Source of the DNA: Glaciimonas sp.
Lineage (GTDB): Bacteria > Pseudomonadota > Gammaproteobacteria > Burkholderiales > Burkholderiaceae_D
Direction of reading: 5' to 3'
NCBI GenBank assembly: GCA_012927585.1
Contig: JABBOY010000026.1
Coordinates: forward strand, 7,408 to 71,407
Length of the DNA: 64,000 nt
Shown here piece after piece: positions 49,143-60,996 of the stretch; the stretch's first letter is position 1, and the number at the start of each line of letters is the position of its first letter. The position numbers were made by a program, and so were the translations under genes. Under the pieces are notes generated by a model. That model had not been told where the DNA came from and did not search any database. It was given only the letters and a program-made list of their open reading frames with translations.

Positions 49143-49577
49143 TTATGCATGCGCCTGCGTCCACGCCACAATACCGGCAGCGTCCATCGCACCGGCTTGC
49201 CGCGCCACTTCGCGCCCGTTCTTGAACAGCGCCAGAGTCGGGATGCTGCGAATGGCGTACTGTGCAGCTAATTCCTGCGCTTGTTCAGTATCGAGCTTGA
49301 CGACCCGGATGGCCGGCTCTAAAAGTTGTGCCGCCTGTGCGTAGGATGGCGCCATCGTGCGGCACGGGCCGCACCACGGGGCCCAGAAATCGACCAGTAC
49401 CGGGATCTGATTACGCGTGATGTGCCGTATGAAACGGGCGCTATCGAGCTCCAGCGGTTGTGCTGCGAACAACGGTTTCTGGCACTTGCCGCAGGTGGGT
49501 TGCGCGTTGAGTTTGTCCGCCGGAACGCGGTTGACTGCATCGCAATGCGGGCAGACGATATGCAGGGAATCGGACAT
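49143..49577 (-). CDS. trxC: Thioredoxin 2
   Basis: CPHC...CGKC zinc finger plus WCGPC active site. Confidence 0.93.
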   Translation of the reverse strand: MSDSLHIVCPHCDAVNRVPADKLNAQPTCGKCQKPLFAAQPLELDSARFIRHITRNQIPVLVDFWAPWCGPCRTMAPSYAQAAQLLEPAIRVVKLDTEQAQELAAQYAIRSIPTLALFKNGREVARQAGAMDAAGIVAWTQAHA

Positions 49578-49643: not shown

Positions 49644-51173
49644 TCATTGCAAAATAGGGATTTTAGCCTGCATGCAGCGCCGCCCGTGCCGACCCAAGAT
49701 ACGAATCTGCCGTTCAGTGCGCGCATCGAGATAACCCTGAGTCAGGCCGGCGCTGAAAGCCAGCTCAGGATGGCCGTGCGCCAATTGCTGCAACAAACGG
49801 TCGGCTACCGCAATGTCATTAAGCCGGCCTAATCGATCCTGCAAGCCTGATAGAGCCTTGAGATACGCGTGCATCGGCCCGGGCCGGTACAGCGACTGGA
49901 AAAACTCACTGGCATAACGTAATTTCTTGGCCGCAATGCGCACTCGATGGCGCGCTTGAGACAGATCATCTTGTGATCGTAGCCGCCGCAACCGTTTGAT
50001 GCGCTTTTGCATTTTTTTACGGCATTGCTGCAGCGTATTTGCCGCAAAATCAGGCAACGGCAGTGCCCACGTTCGATCGCCCTGCAGCGCCTGCGCGTTA
50101 TGTAGCCAACTGCCGATAGCCAGCAGAAAAGCTGCATAGCGCACCGAACTCAGGGCCAACTCAGCCTGATGCCGATGCCGTTGCGCCAGCGTATGCGCCG
50201 TCTGCAGTAGCGCCTCCGGCAGCGGAACTGGGCCGGAATGTCTTAGCATTCCAGAAAAAACTTCCCAGTCGCGCGCGGCACCCAATACGCCCAACAGCCA
50301 TTTCAATTCAGCTAACAGCCCCGCAGGGCAAGGCACAATTTGGGTAAATAATCCAATTGCGCAACGCAATCGACGCAGGCCGACGCGCATCTGGTGCACG
50401 CTTTCCGGGTCGCTACCCAGCTTGACCCCATCCTCATTGCCCTGGATTTGCGCCAGGCAATTACCGACTATCGCTTGCAAGCCTTGCTCTACGTTCAAGT
50501 CTGAAGCCAGCATCAGGGGCACCACCATCGCCACTGTTGGCGCTTGCGGCATCAGCAACGCATAACCGCGCCCGGCCTTGCTGATATTACCAACACGCAA
50601 CGGCAGCGTTTGTTGCAATTCCAGAGCAAATTCAAACAGCCCGGCCGCTGCGCCGGATTTGAGTTCCAGTTCGATCTCGCTAATCGGCAAGCTTGTTGCT
50701 GCATGTACCACCGCGCCTTGATCGAGCACCAGTTCGACCTCTTCCCCGTGCGCCAGGCGCAATTGCCACAGCGTGCGGCGAAATTTAGTAATGAAAATCG
50801 GCACCAGTTGTGAACTTAAATCGCTACCGAGCAACCTCCGGCCCCATTTACTGTGCCGTCCGACCAGATCGGCCAAAGCCGTGAGATCGGGAAATCCGCC
50901 AGTCACAGAAGATTCCCACTCTTCACGTTGATGCAGGCCGGCCGCCACCTGAGCGTCTGCCTTTAGGGTCTGTATCCACTGGCGGTTGACGCTGCGCACC
51001 CGCAATCCGGCACCGTGTCGCCTGAAATAACCATCCGGCGTATCGAAATAAGTGCTGGTAAGTTGTTGCGTGGTGGGCTTGGCAAGCGCATACCGGCGCA
51101 GCAAAGAATGCCGTCGAAAAAGCGCCACGCCAGCCGGGTCCAGCAATAGTTTCAGTTCGGTTTCCATACGCAC
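49644..51173 (-). CDS. CYTH and CHAD domain protein
   Basis: ETELKL, YFDT, EIELELK (CYTH); HQMRVGLRRLR, HRVRIAAKKLRY (CHAD). Confidence 0.9.
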   Translation of the reverse strand: MRMETELKLLLDPAGVALFRRHSLLRRYALAKPTTQQLTSTYFDTPDGYFRRHGAGLRVRSVNRQWIQTLKADAQVAAGLHQREEWESSVTGGFPDLTALADLVGRHSKWGRRLLGSDLSSQLVPIFITKFRRTLWQLRLAHGEEVELVLDQGAVVHAATSLPISEIELELKSGAAAGLFEFALELQQTLPLRVGNISKAGRGYALLMPQAPTVAMVVPLMLASDLNVEQGLQAIVGNCLAQIQGNEDGVKLGSDPESVHQMRVGLRRLRCAIGLFTQIVPCPAGLLAELKWLLGVLGAARDWEVFSGMLRHSGPVPLPEALLQTAHTLAQRHRHQAELALSSVRYAAFLLAIGSWLHNAQALQGDRTWALPLPDFAANTLQQCRKKMQKRIKRLRRLRSQDDLSQARHRVRIAAKKLRYASEFFQSLYRPGPMHAYLKALSGLQDRLGRLNDIAVADRLLQQLAHGHPELAFSAGLTQGYLDARTERQIRILGRHGRRCMQAKIPILQ

Positions 51174-51303
51174 ATCCCGAAAAATTGGTTCATGACAGGC
51201 CCCGCAAAACTACAAAATAGCACACGCAATGCGGCAAGCCATGCCAAACATCAACCAGATACGCGCCAGAATTCCTTTGCGTCACGGTTGACGCAATCCT
51301 ACT

Positions 51304-51504
51304 TTACAACGCATCACGGATGTTATGTGCGCCTAGTGGCCTGCGCCAAAGCAACAAGCCGGCCAGACACAGAAACAGCAAGGAGCCAAAACCCCATACC
51401 CAGGCATAACCAATCATGTCGGCCCAAGGTACCAGGGCATAGGCCAGTCCGAGCAGCGCCCAGACGATGGCGATCGGAACGATCAGCCAAAAATCTTCAT
51501 TCAT
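51304..51504 (-). CDS. Small two-TM membrane protein, possible accessory subunit of the oxidase-like complex
   Basis: 66 aa, two hydrophobic segments, AAGGGG RBS, starts 18 bp after subunit I stop. Confidence 0.65.
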   Translation of the reverse strand: MNEDFWLIVPIAIVWALLGLAYALVPWADMIGYAWVWGFGSLLFLCLAGLLLWRRPLGAHNIRDAL

Positions 51505-51522: not shown

Positions 51523-53202
51523 TCAATGACCGGCAGCGCCGCCAACGACGGTTACCGGGAGTGCTTGCATCAGTTCAAAGCCAATCGCCGAGAAAGCGTA
51601 CATCGCGATCACAATCACCAGCACGGAAATGGGACCGACCCAGGCTTTGAGCCCTGCGGGCGCCGCACTGTCACCCCACGACACCGTCAGGCCATCCGTC
51701 GATGACACGGTTATCTGCCGCCCGGGCCACAAGGACGCAGCAATACCCGCAGCGAAGGCGGTCAGAGCCACTGCCATGATGCTCCCGCCAATAGCGACGG
51801 TCATCATCAGGCCTTGCCACAAAGCTGGCGCCAAATTCTGGTAAGTCACATCCATCACCCGACGCGGTACGCCCAGATAGCCGGCCGTTATGCCGGCGGC
51901 ACCGAACACCAGCAAGCCTGCAAATGCCAGCCAGGGCATCCAGCGCAACAGATCGGGACGCCACAGCGGACGCCCGCCAATGGCTGGCAGCACGACTGAC
52001 AAGGCCGCCAGCAACGTCATACTCACCGTACCGACAGTGAAAAAATGGAAATAACCCGGCACAAAGAAAGTGTCCGACAGCAGCGGCGCAAGCTGGGCTT
52101 GAATCAGCACAAAGGCAAACACCAGTCCCAATCCCATGCTCAACACGGCCACGCCCATGGCGGCCATGGCTGGGTGACGCCACGGCAGCAGACGGATCCA
52201 GCCGAACAAGCCGCGGCCACCTTGAGCGCGGGCGTGTACTTCCAATGACGCCACGATGATGAGAAAAGCGGTGATCGTGGGCACACTGACGAACAGGGAC
52301 AAAATCGACCCGCCCACTTGAACCATCTTGGGTAAATTCGGTTCCAGAAACATGTGGTAAAGCGAGGTAGGTGGCACAAATATCAGGTACATGGAGAAAA
52401 CGATCTTTGAGAAACGCTCGCCGAACACCGATTTGACTCCTGTAAGAGTTTGCATCAGCACGTACCAGAGGATCACCGTCGCCATCAGCGGCAGGTAATG
52501 CATGTTGTGAAACACGATGTGCCAGCGGGTGCCGTGATTGGCCGGAAAGGGCCCGACACCCAGTACCCACAAGACACCAGGCGCAAAGGTGTACAAGGCA
52601 GCAAATCCCGTCACCATCAGAAACCCGGCCCAAGCGAACAAGGCAAATCCGATGGCGCTCAGTCGATCCTGTTGACCCTGCCAGCGCGGCTTCAGCAAAG
52701 TCGCAATGGCTGAAGCCGGCAGAGCCATCAATCCCAAGGCCAGACATAGGTAACCCAGGTTGAAAACAAGCAAGGCGCTTGGGTTGTCGGCAGCCAGTTC
52801 GGGCGCGCCGTTGTAGAGCAGCGGCGTGCCCATGAACGAACCTGCCATGCTCAAGCCCAAGCCCACCAGTATCAGCGCGAAGCCGCTCCACGCCAGGCGC
52901 GGCAAAGCCAGTCCGCCACTGTGTTCGGTAGCGGCAAAGCCCAACAACAACGCCGCCTGCGCGGTGAACAGCCAGTAGAAGAAGATGCTCTGGCCGTGTA
53001 CGGTCAGAGCGCGGTAGCCCGTGTTCAGCGAAAGATCCAACAAGCCGCCGCGCACCAGCGCGGTAGTCAGGCCGGCCAGTACGCCTATCGCTAGTGCCAA
53101 CAGCGCGACTGCAACCATGCTCTTGAGCAGACGACGGTCATGCGCCGGCAGAGTGATAAAACGTTCAATGTAAGTGGATGTGGTTGTGGGGGTGTGGGTC
53201 AT
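51523..53202 (-). CDS. B-family (ba3-like) heme-copper oxidase subunit I homologue with altered active site
   Basis: LTVHG, HxxxY (FHNMHY), GGRGLFGWIRLLPW, VPRR match ba3 CbaA; LYHMF and PGYFH replace FHHQF and PGHFH. Confidence 0.88.
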   Translation of the reverse strand: MTHTPTTTSTYIERFITLPAHDRRLLKSMVAVALLALAIGVLAGLTTALVRGGLLDLSLNTGYRALTVHGQSIFFYWLFTAQAALLLGFAATEHSGGLALPRLAWSGFALILVGLGLSMAGSFMGTPLLYNGAPELAADNPSALLVFNLGYLCLALGLMALPASAIATLLKPRWQGQQDRLSAIGFALFAWAGFLMVTGFAALYTFAPGVLWVLGVGPFPANHGTRWHIVFHNMHYLPLMATVILWYVLMQTLTGVKSVFGERFSKIVFSMYLIFVPPTSLYHMFLEPNLPKMVQVGGSILSLFVSVPTITAFLIIVASLEVHARAQGGRGLFGWIRLLPWRHPAMAAMGVAVLSMGLGLVFAFVLIQAQLAPLLSDTFFVPGYFHFFTVGTVSMTLLAALSVVLPAIGGRPLWRPDLLRWMPWLAFAGLLVFGAAGITAGYLGVPRRVMDVTYQNLAPALWQGLMMTVAIGGSIMAVALTAFAAGIAASLWPGRQITVSSTDGLTVSWGDSAAPAGLKAWVGPISVLVIVIAMYAFSAIGFELMQALPVTVVGGAAGH

Positions 53203-53203
53203 T

Positions 53204-53911
53204 TCATGCTACCTCAATGGTTGCTTGCATCATGTCGTGAGCGGCACCGCAATAAACAGTGCAGTACATCAGATAGCGCCCAGGGCGTTGAAATGTGAGC
53301 TCGGTCTCGGTGAGTCGCCCCGGCAGCAGACGCATCATGCGTGCACCGTTGCCGAACTGGATCGACGCACCGTGGGAAACGTCCAGCGCCATCATCCTGA
53401 AACGATAAGGCTGCCCCATATCCAGGCGCAGGATGTTGGGCTGGTAGTACCACTTGCCTGCAGTCATGAGCACCTCGATCGGCTGGCTATCAACCGCTGC
53501 TGGTAGGGCAATGCCCTGTCCGGCGGAGCCCATCGCCATATCTTGCATGGTGCCATGCCCGGCGTGCGGATCGTTATTACGGATTGGCGCAACTTCTAGC
53601 CGGCGCGGGTACACGCTACCGTCGGGCAGGCGGAAGCGTTCACTGAATTCAGCGCTCATGCGGCTGAACTCTTCGGGACTGGGGCCCTTGGCAGCAACGC
53701 CATGACCGCCATGACCACCTTCTGACAGCTTGACTTGGGGCTGAGCAGCGCCTTCGGCATGGGTTTCATTGCGTGCGCCGTCCAGTCCGAGCAATGCCAG
53801 CGGTCCAGGGGCGGCGCCATAGGCAGCCCATAATCCATACAGGCTGACGCCGCCAAAACCGGCAGCAGCAATAAAGGCGCGCCGGGTTGTGAAGTGTTTT
53901 GTATCTTTCAT
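53204..53911 (-). CDS. CuA-containing cupredoxin (oxidase subunit II-like) with Tat signal
   Basis: TTRRAF twin-arginine motif, DVSHG and CTVYCGAAHDMM CuA ligands, His/Met-rich linker. Confidence 0.85.
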   Translation of the reverse strand: MKDTKHFTTRRAFIAAAGFGGVSLYGLWAAYGAAPGPLALLGLDGARNETHAEGAAQPQVKLSEGGHGGHGVAAKGPSPEEFSRMSAEFSERFRLPDGSVYPRRLEVAPIRNNDPHAGHGTMQDMAMGSAGQGIALPAAVDSQPIEVLMTAGKWYYQPNILRLDMGQPYRFRMMALDVSHGASIQFGNGARMMRLLPGRLTETELTFQRPGRYLMYCTVYCGAAHDMMQATIEVA

Positions 53912-53993
53912 TGGGTTCTTCCAAGACAGTAATAAATATCAATGGAGTGCAAGTTCCAGCAGCCTAGTGTAAGAAAAAGAAGGAAACGAGAAC

Positions 53994-54022
53994 ATGACAA
54001 CAAGATTACAGTTTTGTAATCT
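53994..54022. promoter_or_regulatory. CopR/CusR-like box upstream of the oxidase-like operon
   Basis: AGATTACA-GTTT-TGTAATCT perfect palindrome (54003-54022) plus ATGACA half-site 11 bp from ATTACA. Confidence 0.55.
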
Positions 54023-54145
54023 ATGCTCCATGTTCATGCCAGGAGCCCGTAAAATGGGAAAACAACACACCATGCTTCGGCCATTCTGAGCATCAATAAG
54101 AGAGTGCAATAATCTTTGCTGCGGCTATGGCCGCATAAATGGAAA

Positions 54146-58705: not shown

Positions 58706-58864
58706 TACGATTTCTTTCAGATTGCCGACTTGACTTTGCCGCATGAATTCCAGTGTAGGCCGCTTTTCCCCTGGCTCTAAGCGCCATACGGTAAAGTATG
58801 TAACTGTTTGTAATGCCTGGTGAATTTGCATTTTCATAGTACCTTTCCGACGTTACCATGCAAC

Positions 58865-59644
58865 ATGAATAAAATAAACTCCACCATGCCACCGCATACC
58901 CAGACCAGCACACAAACCAACAATGCCCATCAGTCCAAAATCCTGGTAGTGGACGACGACATTCGGCTGCGCGATCTGCTGCGCCGCTACCTGACTGAGC
59001 AAGGCTTTCACGTTGTCACGGCCGAACACGCCACAGCCATGAACAAGTTATGGCTGCGCGAGCGCTACGATCTGCTGGTGCTTGACTTGATGCTGCCGGG
59101 AGAAGACGGGCTTTCGATCTGTCGCCGACTGCGCGGCGCCGGCGACGACACACCAATCATCATGCTGACCGCCAAAGGCGAGGATATCGATCGCATCATC
59201 GGCCTGGAAATGGGTGCTGACGATTACTTGCCCAAGCCGTTCAACCCACGCGAACTGGTGGCGCGCATTAACGCGGTGCTGCGCCGCAAAGGCCCCGACG
59301 AGATCCCGGGCGCGCCATCCGGCACCCCGCAAACCTTCGAATTCGGCAGTTTCGTACTTGACTTGGCAACCCGCTCGCTGAAGAAGAATGGCGAAACAAT
59401 TGCGCTCACGACCGGCGAATTCTCAGTGCTGAAAGTCTTTGCCCGCCACGCCAGGCAACCGCTATCGCGCGAAAAGCTGATGGAAATGGCGCGCGGCCGC
59501 GAATATGAAGCGTTCGATCGCAGCCTCGACGTCCAGATTTCGCGCCTGCGCAAGCTGATCGAGCCGGACCCATCCAATCCGCTGTACATCCAGACTGTCT
59601 GGGGCTTGGGATATGTATTCATTCCCGAAGGCCAGCCGCGCTAG
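58865..59644 (+). CDS. ompR: OmpR-family response regulator (OmpR/RisA-like)
   Basis: ILVVDDD, VLDLMLPGEDG, KPFNPRELVARI, winged helix YIQTVWGLGY; start uncertain. Confidence 0.9.
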   Translation: MNKINSTMPPHTQTSTQTNNAHQSKILVVDDDIRLRDLLRRYLTEQGFHVVTAEHATAMNKLWLRERYDLLVLDLMLPGEDGLSICRRLRGAGDDTPIIMLTAKGEDIDRIIGLEMGADDYLPKPFNPRELVARINAVLRRKGPDEIPGAPSGTPQTFEFGSFVLDLATRSLKKNGETIALTTGEFSVLKVFARHARQPLSREKLMEMARGREYEAFDRSLDVQISRLRKLIEPDPSNPLYIQTVWGLGYVFIPEGQPR

Positions 59645-59661
59645 CGCGCCCGGCAAGATCG

Positions 59662-60996
59662 ATGCACCTTACCGATAAACGGTTCAACTGGCTGCACAGC
59701 GGCTTGTTCTGGCGCACTTTTCTGCTGCTGGCGATTTTGATGATGACCAGCATGACGGTCTGGATCAGCTCTTACCGCCTGCTCGAACGCGAGCCTCGCG
59801 CCCGCCAACTGGCTGCCCAAGTGGTTTCCATCGTCACCATCACGCGCGCGGCGTTGACCCATTCAGCTCCCGATTTGCGACGCGAATTGCTGTTCGACCT
59901 GGCCAGCAATGAAGGCATTCGCATCTATCCGCTTGAGCGCAGCGACCGGGTGGAACCCGTTCCCGATAGCGAAATCGGACTCGCGCTGCAAGAAAACATT
60001 CGCGGTACGCTGGGCCAGAACACCCGTTTCGCGGGTGATGTCAATGACGTTGCCGGTTTCTGGATCAGTTTTAGTATCGAAGACGATGCGTACTGGCTCA
60101 TGCTGGAAAGGGACCGCATCGAAAATTTCACCAATCTGCAATTGCTGGGCTGGGGCGCCAGCGTCTTTGGATTATCTCTGCTGGGCGCGCTTTTCATCTC
60201 CGGCCTGATCAACCAACCGCTGGCCAGATTGACCGCCGCTGCCCGCGCCATCGCAAAAGGCAAGCAAATGGCGCCGCTGCCGGAACAAGGCCCAACTGAA
60301 ATCAGGGAAGCCAACCGCAGCTTCAACCAGATGGTCGATGACCTGAATCAGATCGAATCGGATCGCGCCGTGATTCTGGCCGGCATTTCGCATGATCTGC
60401 GCACGCCAATCACCAGAATGCAACTCGAAATCGAGATGGCGCCTTTGTCTGCCGAAGCCAGGCAGGGCATGTCGGACGACATTGCCCAGATGGACGCCAT
60501 CATTGGGCAATTTCTCGATTACGCCAGGCCGGCAGATGCCAATAGCTTTTCTTCGGTCGATTTATCCGCCCTGTTGCACGACTGCATCGGGCAAGCAGAA
60601 CGCTTGCCCGACGTAAACATCAGGCCCCGAATCAGTAACCCAATGCAAGTGACAGGCAATCAAACCGATCTCAAACGCGTTGTTAACAATCTGATAGAAA
60701 ATGCGCGCCGCTATGGCAAGACGGCCGGCACAGACATCGCCGAGATCGATATCCATAGTTACCTTGACAGCGGAAAATCGATCCTGGAAATCACCGATCA
60801 CGGCGCCGGTGTGCCGGATGCGGAAATCGATCGCCTGCTACGGCCGTTTACCCGCATGGATACCGCCCGTGGACAAGCTAACGGTGCCGGCTTGGGGCTG
60901 GCAATTGTGCAACGTATTATCAAGCGCCACGGCGGCCAACTGCAATTAAGTCGCGGCAAGGATGGCCGGGGACTGGCGATCAGAATTATTTTTTAA
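59662..60996 (+). CDS. EnvZ/RisS-like sensor histidine kinase
   Basis: Two TMs, HAMP, ISHDLRTP, NLIENA, DHGAG, GAGLGLAIV. Confidence 0.92.
   Translation: MHLTDKRFNWLHSGLFWRTFLLLAILMMTSMTVWISSYRLLEREPRARQLAAQVVSIVTITRAALTHSAPDLRRELLFDLASNEGIRIYPLERSDRVEPVPDSEIGLALQENIRGTLGQNTRFAGDVNDVAGFWISFSIEDDAYWLMLERDRIENFTNLQLLGWGASVFGLSLLGALFISGLINQPLARLTAAARAIAKGKQMAPLPEQGPTEIREANRSFNQMVDDLNQIESDRAVILAGISHDLRTPITRMQLEIEMAPLSAEARQGMSDDIAQMDAIIGQFLDYARPADANSFSSVDLSALLHDCIGQAERLPDVNIRPRISNPMQVTGNQTDLKRVVNNLIENARRYGKTAGTDIAEIDIHSYLDSGKSILEITDHGAGVPDAEIDRLLRPFTRMDTARGQANGAGLGLAIVQRIIKRHGGQLQLSRGKDGRGLAIRIIF

Follow-up and report, generated by a model that had tools for sequence, protein, structure and literature searches.

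A heme-copper oxidase homologue with Tyr at two active-site His positions, and its association with bacterial copper resistance genes

Can a heme-copper oxidase (HCO) dispense with two of its metal-ligating His residues, and which reaction would such a protein serve? All six of these residues have been treated as defining for the HCO superfamily, and the broadest recent survey reports one family in which a single His is replaced (PMC11214002). The question is raised by a 64,000-nucleotide stretch of a Glaciimonas sp. genome (assembly GCA_012927585.1, contig JABBOY010000026.1, positions 7,408 to 71,407; hereafter the window), in which a preliminary description made from the sequence alone had pointed out an HCO catalytic subunit carrying Tyr at two sites normally occupied by His. 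According to the open reading frames (ORFs) and annotation of the window, this subunit I is encoded in a group of three tightly packed minus-strand genes, together with subunit II and a small subunit. The genes and residues concerned are listed below, residue numbers being those of subunit I unless the ba3 oxidase of Thermus thermophilus is named.

53204-53911, minus strand: subunit II, 235 residues, a CuA cupredoxin with a twin-arginine translocation (Tat) signal (TTRRAFI); Pfam COX2
53228-53263, minus strand: CuA box CTVYCGAAHDMM in subunit II
51523-53202, minus strand: subunit I, 559 residues, HCO catalytic subunit derived from the B family; Pfam COX1; signature H69 / H232-N-M-H235-Y236 / Y282-H283 / Y384-F-H386 / R447-R448
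52996-52998, minus strand: codon CAC of H69, a low-spin heme His
52495-52509, minus strand: HNMHY (letters CACAACATGCATTAC), with the CuB His H232, the new pocket His H235 (ba3 V236) and the cross-link Tyr Y236
52357-52359, minus strand: codon TAC of Y282, a CuB ligand position (ba3 H282)
52051-52053, minus strand: codon TAT of Y384, which takes the place of the His that is proximal ligand of the high-spin heme (ba3 H384)
52045-52047, minus strand: codon CAT of H386, a low-spin heme His
51304-51504, minus strand: small two-helix membrane subunit, 66 residues

All the positions and residues that had been singled out, namely the TAT and TAC codons, the HNMHY segment, the low-spin heme His residues and VPRR, were confirmed in the sequence. 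Furthermore, a HMMER search against all PDB chains returned Thermus ba3 subunit I as the top match (E values from 4e-25 to 1e-21), and its alignment reproduced each of the pairings with ba3 that the preliminary description had made (ba3 before subunit I: HPI(V)Y/HNMHY, GFHHQF/SLYHMF, VPGHFH/VPGYFH, DYVVHNT/APLLSDT and VPRR/VPRR), including the change of Val to His before the cross-link Tyr and the replacement of DYVVHNT by APLLSDT.

The two Tyr residues and the additional His are the property of a whole family. A word-indexed search retrieved more than 812 homologues and, among the best 120 of them (72 to 100% identical), VPGYFH is present in 116, SLYHMF in 119 and HN[ML]HY in all 120, so that close homologues do not carry His at both sites. 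An exhaustive search of 50%-identity representatives yielded 17 full-length relatives ranging from 79% down to 31% identity, all of which display the complete signature (H69 / H232..H235-Y236 / Y282-H283 / Y384..H386 / R447-R448), and hence also the low-spin heme His residues, the helix VI CuB His, the cross-link Tyr and the VPRR segment that had been described as kept. Matches at or below 29% identity switch to the canonical B-family pattern (HxxV/QY, HH, HxH). Likewise, in an alignment of 71 sequences, comprising 57 family members and 14 canonical B-family sequences, H232, H235, Y236, Y282, H283, Y384 and H386 occur in 57/57 members, whereas the canonical sequences have His at 282 and 384 in 14/14 cases and Val or Gln at 235. 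The columns that split the family from the canonical B sequences are G231F, V235H, W238P, R266K, V279T, H282Y, S309T, N/D372A and H384Y. A scan of one genome per species found the family in 242 species, with representatives in Burkholderiales, Rhodocyclales, Thioalkalivibrio, Nitrincola, Paracoccus and other Rhodobacterales, Azospirillum and Rhizobiales. As the ORF is intact and the signature holds without exception down to 31% identity, the gene is not decaying; judged by this invariance, the Tyr/Tyr/His signature is neither decay, nor a sequencing error, nor specific to one strain.

Which parts of the oxidase machinery does the family preserve? The bis-His ligation of the low-spin heme is invariant, with H69 and H386 aligning with ba3 H72 and H386, and the Arg pair R447-R448, which holds the heme propionates, is kept throughout. 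The Tyr of the putative His-Tyr cross-link in helix VI (HxxxY) is invariant as Y236, four residues after H232. On the other hand, the proximal His of the catalytic heme is replaced by Tyr in 57/57 members, and of the three canonical CuB His residues only H232 and H283 are kept, position 282 being Tyr in all members; the new H235 might compensate for this lost ligand. An analogue of the ba3 K-path (S309, T312, T315, Y244, Y248) is missing as well, with three of the five positions lost (T312A in 44/57, T315 to Ile, Leu or Val, and Y244V in 54/57) and S309 (as Thr) and Y248 kept. The proposed proton-loading pair is also changed (D372A and H376S). At the end of the ba3 oxygen channel, G232 becomes Phe and V236 becomes His, that is, bulky or polar residues, at positions for which ba3 channel mutants have been crystallized according to the titles of PDB entries. 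By its sequence, the family thus departs from the B family in three defining respects, having no proximal His, no third canonical CuB His and no complete K-path. We infer that subunit I would still pass electrons from CuA to the low-spin heme, and that it would neither pump protons nor take them up from the cytoplasm, with a different chemistry at the end of the electron wire.

Sequence, fold and phylogeny agree on the origin of the complex, which on these grounds descends from a ba3-type (B-family) cytochrome oxidase. Subunit I scores 133 bits with Pfam PF00115 COX1 (cut-off 34.8), and no NCBIfam model claims it. Its AlphaFold2 model, built from the 71-sequence input, is confident (predicted local distance difference test score of 89.5, predicted template modeling score of 0.93), and the best Foldseek matches of this model are the ba3 subunit I entries (template modeling score of 0.78). 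In a maximum-likelihood tree, obtained by a quick search with no bootstraps, the family forms a single clade (Shimodaira-Hasegawa approximate likelihood ratio support of 100) nested inside the B family. Its sister clade (support of 99) is a B subclade with HxxQY or HxxQQ, having Gln at the V236 position, and the A-type, cbb3 and NorB-like subunits of the same genome fall outside the B family. Some odd B-family relatives were seen among the representatives (P0170, P0223, P0208, P0204): two HxxQQ sequences without the cross-link Tyr are probable members of a nitric oxide reductase (NOR) family, the CuB positions of a third sequence read N/E/Y/V/R, and another is devoid of both helix X His residues.

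Subunit II scores 25.3 bits with Pfam COX2 (cut-off 22), and the CuA motif Cx3Cx3Hx2M with its upstream His is found in 87 of the 92 subunit II sequences. The proteobacterial proteins start with a Tat motif, TRR[GAS]F[IV], which is absent in distant members. Between the signal and the cupredoxin region lie a His-rich GGHGGHG segment, the conserved motif F..RYRLPDGSVYPRR and a second His/Met/Asp-rich tract, the latter being variable in length across relatives and reading PHAGHGTMQDMAM in the window. CopA and CopB carry MDH copper-binding repeats (PMC12428095), and copper tolerance depends on CopI, a cupredoxin whose tail is rich in His (PMC4600104); the tracts of subunit II resemble both the MDH repeats and the CopI tail. 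The most extreme His/Met-rich tract of the family, with eight tandem HGAMD/MDHGA repeats, is seen in the linker of a Thioalkalivibrio metagenome-assembled genome (MAG; L038). As for the small subunit, 66 of 81 loci have a homologue of it behind subunit I, with the conserved pattern D..L..VW..L..YA..P..M.GY..VWG.G..F, and an ORF of 46 to 73 residues likewise follows subunit I in the most distant members.

In which context are these genes found? Neighboring genes were counted by tblastn in 81 non-redundant loci (80 related loci and the window) in preference to longest-ORF calling, which gives antisense ORFs in high-GC loci (clusters c6, c8, c10, c18 and c20), and the copper tallies exclude kinases and regulators. 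Besides subunit II, found in 79 loci, the neighborhoods contain a Cu P-type ATPase (32 loci), DUF411/CopG (18), a CusA-type RND protein (16), ICMT (14), a multicopper oxidase (MCO; 13), CusB (13), a CueR-type MerR regulator (11), DUF2933 (10), CusF (9), a Met-rich periplasmic protein (9) and a CopI-like cupredoxin (8). Of the 52 loci of at least 15 kb, 38 (73%) hold one copper gene or more, against 6.6% of random 21.6-kb windows of the Glaciimonas genome scored in the same way. The family is thus habitually encoded inside copper-resistance islands. CopG is encoded directly upstream and on the same strand in 6 loci, and in Hydrogenophaga pseudoflava the gene order is CusRS, MCO, cupredoxin, CusF, CopG, [II, I, small], Met-rich protein, DUF2933, ICMT and Cu-ATPase. 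Furthermore, the most distant member (L083, 3900-12600; 31% identity) is found in the order SCO1/SenC, a 215-residue protein, MCO, [II, I, 73 residues], a 241-residue protein and a CopC-CopD fusion; as this member also lies amid copper genes, the copper association appears as old as the family. In the same locus, a His-rich segment and a second CuA-like motif, CxxxCGxGH, are seen in the 215-residue protein, the 241-residue protein is His-rich and anchored, and the genes upstream include one of the UbiA family and one for a DOMON protein.

A cytochrome c gene is nearby in 9 loci, and no NorB, other HCO, cox, nir or nor genes were found in 92 neighborhoods. In a Pseudotabrizicola MAG (L060, 3000-18000), the operon stands between genes for an Rrf2/NsrR-like regulator and a YtfE-like di-iron protein and likely nosR, nosZ, nosD and nosF; none of the others among the 92 loci, in which NosZ, NsrR and YtfE were looked for, has an N-oxide context. 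NosZ, too, is a CuA enzyme.

None of the genes beside the operon of the window is a copper gene: they encode CHAD/CYTH, thioredoxin 2, SugE and a RisS-type two-component system. Here the link to copper is found in the promoter. The regulatory and flanking elements are as follows.

53980-54025, minus strand: promoter module of about 46 nucleotides, with the copper box, an extra TGTCA half-site and a -10-like TACACT
54005-54020, no strand assigned: palindromic copper box of the CopR/CusR type, the 16-mer ATTACAAAACTGTAAT (TTACA-N4-TGTAA)
51249-51258, no strand assigned: left copy of an imperfect 10-bp direct repeat, CATCAACCAG, at one edge of a 2.84-kb cassette
54091-54100, no strand assigned: right copy of this repeat, CATCAATAAG, at the other edge

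The copper box lies about 100 nucleotides upstream of subunit II and has the same architecture as the TGACA-N4-TGTCA consensus of CopR/CusR (PMC12428095), an inverted repeat of the kind recognized by heavy-metal OmpR-type regulators. The exact 16-mer occurs in two copies in the 4.17-Mb assembly, one in the window and one on another contig (C29, at about 219300), where it precedes an operon for a Met-rich protein, a CueO-like MCO, DUF411/CopG, DUF2933 and a Cu-ATPase. The promoter module is identical at 43 of 46 nucleotides to the region upstream of that operon, including the TGTCA half-site and the -10-like hexamer, and the operon adjoins cusCBA and a heavy-metal two-component system (TIGR01387, 351 bits; TIGR01386, 494 bits; both above the NCBIfam cut-offs). 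Of 76 loci, 10 have a related box in the region upstream of subunit II, about 17 times the density of such boxes across the loci overall. Judged by its promoter sequence, the operon appears to belong to the CopR/CusR copper-stress regulon of this genome and to be copper-regulated. A search for RNA runs returned none containing this sequence, those on offer having just the species label in common with it. The copper-type box and the His/Met-rich partner of the preliminary description are both real and conserved in kind, and the role in copper handling that it had put forward gains support from the cop/cus genes of the related loci and from a promoter module shared only with the genome's own MCO/CopG/Cu-ATPase operon. 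The copper island on contig C29 (213947-231960) comprises a Cu-ATPase with a YHS-like N-terminus, a 128-residue Met-rich periplasmic protein directly behind the twin promoter, cusCBA-like genes and copRS; Met-rich proteins of this kind come after the oxidase-like operon in about nine other loci.

The operon and its promoter are a mobile cassette. Within the taxonomic family of the window, the gene is present in 1 of 151 sampled genomes, its own, and four congeners are devoid of it. In one congener (G106, locus L095), the sequence corresponding to window position ~51258 is joined directly to that of ~54091 via a single CATCAACAAG, and the 2.84 kb that are extra here, bounded by the imperfect direct repeat of the target sequence, correspond exactly to the three genes of the operon with their copper-box promoter. 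No transposase or integrase is encoded inside the 2.84-kb cassette. A search of PLSDB returned only three Azospirillum chromids, without annotation, and no sign of carriage by classical resistance plasmids.

What would the complex do? We propose, with confidence and doubt about evenly balanced, that the product of the three genes is a redox complex of the membrane which is induced by copper stress and acts as a CuA-fed, non-pumping sink for periplasmic Cu(I), and that it probably helps to detoxify periplasmic copper. Subunit II, exported by the Tat pathway, would catch periplasmic Cu(I) with its His/Met-rich tails; alternatively, CopG- or CopI-type partners would pass the Cu(I) on. The electron of Cu(I) would then enter CuA and proceed via the low-spin heme to a tyrosinate-ligated heme and a copper site made of two or three His and a Tyr, where O2 or H2O2 would be reduced with periplasmic protons and without proton pumping. 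The net outcome would be a membrane-bound electron sink turning toxic Cu(I) into Cu(II). CopG, which has been proposed to oxidize Cu(I), matters anaerobically (PMC7558416). In our reading, an electron acceptor for such Cu(I)-oxidizing proteins is missing, and the complex could take this place. More tentatively, the family may be the first among HCOs whose catalytic heme is ligated by tyrosinate and whose CuB site is rebuilt from His232, His235 and His283 together with Tyr282. It would serve as membrane-bound terminal electron sink for the oxidation of periplasmic Cu(I), with electrons flowing directly from Cu(I) or via CopG/CopI to O2 or H2O2, and would supply the acceptor for copper detoxification at low oxygen; we hold this full version to be somewhat less likely than not.

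Several points weigh against a Cu(I) sink. Very low Fe(III)/Fe(II) potentials are expected of catalase-type tyrosinate-ligated hemes, which argues against O2 binding with electrons from Cu(I) and CuA. By analogy, Tyr ligation should lock the heme in the ferric state. Retention of the high-spin heme is a prediction, and its propionate partners D372 and H376 are also changed; similarly, H235 would have to be able to reach the CuB position. The MCO that is often co-encoded already oxidizes Cu(I), and a second cuprous oxidase could be redundant. About one-quarter of the loci of at least 15 kb, the window included, have no copper gene within 10 kb, the non-copper neighborhoods (e.g., Azospirillum) being poorly annotated, and in these loci the link to copper is the promoter only, or none is established. 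Finally, the expression, metal content and activity ascribed to the complex are drawn from sequence and genomic context.

Other explanations of the same features may be considered. Catalase-type Tyr-ligated hemes stabilize the ferric and ferryl states, and the complex could be a membrane-bound peroxidase in which a catalase-like pocket, made of the tyrosinate heme and a distal H235, reduces H2O2 via CuA and limits copper-driven Fenton chemistry, Cu(I) not necessarily being the direct donor. The invariance of the proximal Tyr and of the new pocket His and the preserved electron wire would fit this proposal, as would the AhpC/thioredoxin neighbors of one distant locus and thioredoxin 2 near the operon in the window. 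We nevertheless regard it as unlikely, because copper genes dominate the context with no systematic oxidative-stress genes, because the two kept CuB His residues, the cross-link Tyr and Y282 would be left unexplained, and because H235 would have to be suitably placed for a distal role. It is rather unlikely, too, that the complex still serves respiration, as a back-up oxidase which withstands copper and transfers electrons from cytochrome c (or a cupredoxin) to O2; it would be turned on under copper stress because copper damages the cbb3 oxidase and the assembly of c-type cytochromes. Copper stress indeed lowers the cbb3 oxidase and c-type cytochromes in Rubrivivax (PMC4600104), and the B-family descent, the intact wire from CuA to heme b, the cross-link Tyr, the apparent copper regulation and the cytochrome c gene nearby in 9 loci are what such an enzyme would show. 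Against it, every member has lost the proximal His of the O2-binding heme together with one of the CuB His residues, the gene travels with resistance islands and not with respiratory genes, and energy conservation looks abandoned, since three K-path positions and the proton-loading residues are gone and Phe at ba3 G232 and His at V236 fill the end of the O2 channel.

The strict conservation of the CuA ligands, the low-spin heme His residues and the Arg pair across a deep family points to electron transfer, and a 13-helix complex would be costly for binding a few copper ions. A non-catalytic copper sink, sensor or assembly scaffold, whose former active site and subunit II would simply bind copper, is therefore improbable in our view, even if the His/Met-rich tails, the His/Tyr-rich pocket and the copper regulon would suit it. 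Still harder to sustain is a new reductase of NO or another N-oxide comparable to eNOR, sNOR, gNOR, nNOR and bNOR. Its appeal stems from the repeated evolution of NORs from B-family offshoots with altered active sites (PMC11214002), from the HxxQQ sequences without Tyr in the sister clade, and from the locus beside nosRZDF and NsrR/YtfE-like genes. However, the cross-link Tyr, which the described NOR families have lost, is invariant here, no FeB site completed by Glu or Asp is found, the nos/NsrR context is a single case among 92 neighborhoods devoid of nir and nor genes, and both context and promoter are of the copper type. Last, a decaying oxidase gene or a sequencing error would agree with the fact that each His to Tyr change is a single transition; it is hardly credible in view of the intact ORF, a signature kept in 57/57 members down to 31% identity and in ~242 species, and the preserved three-gene architecture.

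How does the family compare with known systems? The B-family O2 reductases (Thermus thermophilus ba3; PDB 1EHK, 1XME and 3S8F) are the best match in sequence and fold, and the family is phylogenetically nested within them. Both share a CuA subunit II, a small extra membrane subunit, the low-spin heme His residues, the equivalents of the CuB ligands His233 and His283, the helix VI cross-link Tyr and the Arg pair. The family differs from ba3 by the replacement of His384 and the CuB ligand His282 by Tyr, of V236 by His and of G232 by Phe, by the K-path changes of T312, T315 and Y244 to Ala, Ile and Val, and by those of the proton-loading D372 and H376 to Ala and Ser; its subunit II has a Tat signal and His/Met-rich linkers, and its context is copper resistance instead of respiration. 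The NORs derived from the B family (eNOR, bNOR, sNOR, nNOR and gNOR; PMC11214002) are likewise offshoots with rebuilt active sites and cupredoxin subunits, and gNOR also swaps an active-site His, for Asp, for which it was called the first HCO with a replaced active-site His by Murali et al. 2024 (PMC11214002). However, the six new families of that study all lack the cross-link Tyr (PMC11214002), which is kept here, none of those NORs replaces the proximal heme His, and their context is denitrification, whereas that of the present family is copper defense. Neither hallmark of NORs, the absent cross-link Tyr or the denitrification context, is thus found, and the pattern is, as the preliminary description had held, neither that of a normal oxidase nor that of a NOR.

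Among copper proteins, the MCOs CueO, CopA and PcoA, CopG (DUF411) and CopI share with the complex the regulon, the islands and the proposed substrate Cu(I). The His- or Met-rich tails before the cupredoxin domain of subunit II are akin to those of CopI (PMC4600104) and to the MDH repeats of CopA/CopB (PMC12428095). Unlike these soluble copper redox proteins, the complex is membrane-integral, heme-containing and of HCO descent, and is not homologous to their catalytic cores. With catalases it would share a tyrosinate heme with a proximal Tyr and a distal His, as far as the positions of these residues suggest; the folds are unrelated and the heme, if present, would lie beside a copper site and be fed by an intramolecular electron wire. 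Full-text literature searches returned no description of this signature, nor of any HCO in copper resistance. We regard the variant as a new family of HCOs, unprecedented in its set of ligands and placed in a physiological setting that is new for them.

This strictly conserved Tyr/Tyr family shows that the HCO scaffold supports a third kind of active site, and offers a candidate for a natural Tyr-ligated heme/copper center to bioinorganic study. Furthermore, it would add a membrane redox complex to the repertoire of bacterial copper defense and provides a candidate for the electron acceptor of periplasmic Cu(I)-oxidizing proteins such as CopG and CopI. The operon is carried by culturable, non-pathogenic organisms, among them Hydrogenophaga pseudoflava, Azospirillum, Paracoccus and Azoarcus taiwanensis.

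In the remainder of the window, the two-component system at 58820-60996 was considered as a CusRS-like copper sensor and rejected, its Pfam assignment being of the RisS/OmpR type (PF16524). Downstream of the cassette lie a CYTH-CHAD protein of the polyphosphate/triphosphate-tunnel family (49644-51173) and the zinc-ribbon thioredoxin 2 (49143-49577); as both are kept in congeners without the cassette, they are not part of it. Elsewhere in the genome, five other COX1-family genes are found on contigs C26, C36, C38 and C35. The respiratory repertoire is thus large and independent of the three-gene operon, which with five other COX1 genes present is to be seen as an accessory function and not as a housekeeping oxidase. 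These other genes encode an A-type subunit, a cbb3 CcoN beside a P-type ATPase, a 573-residue form and two forms of NorB size.

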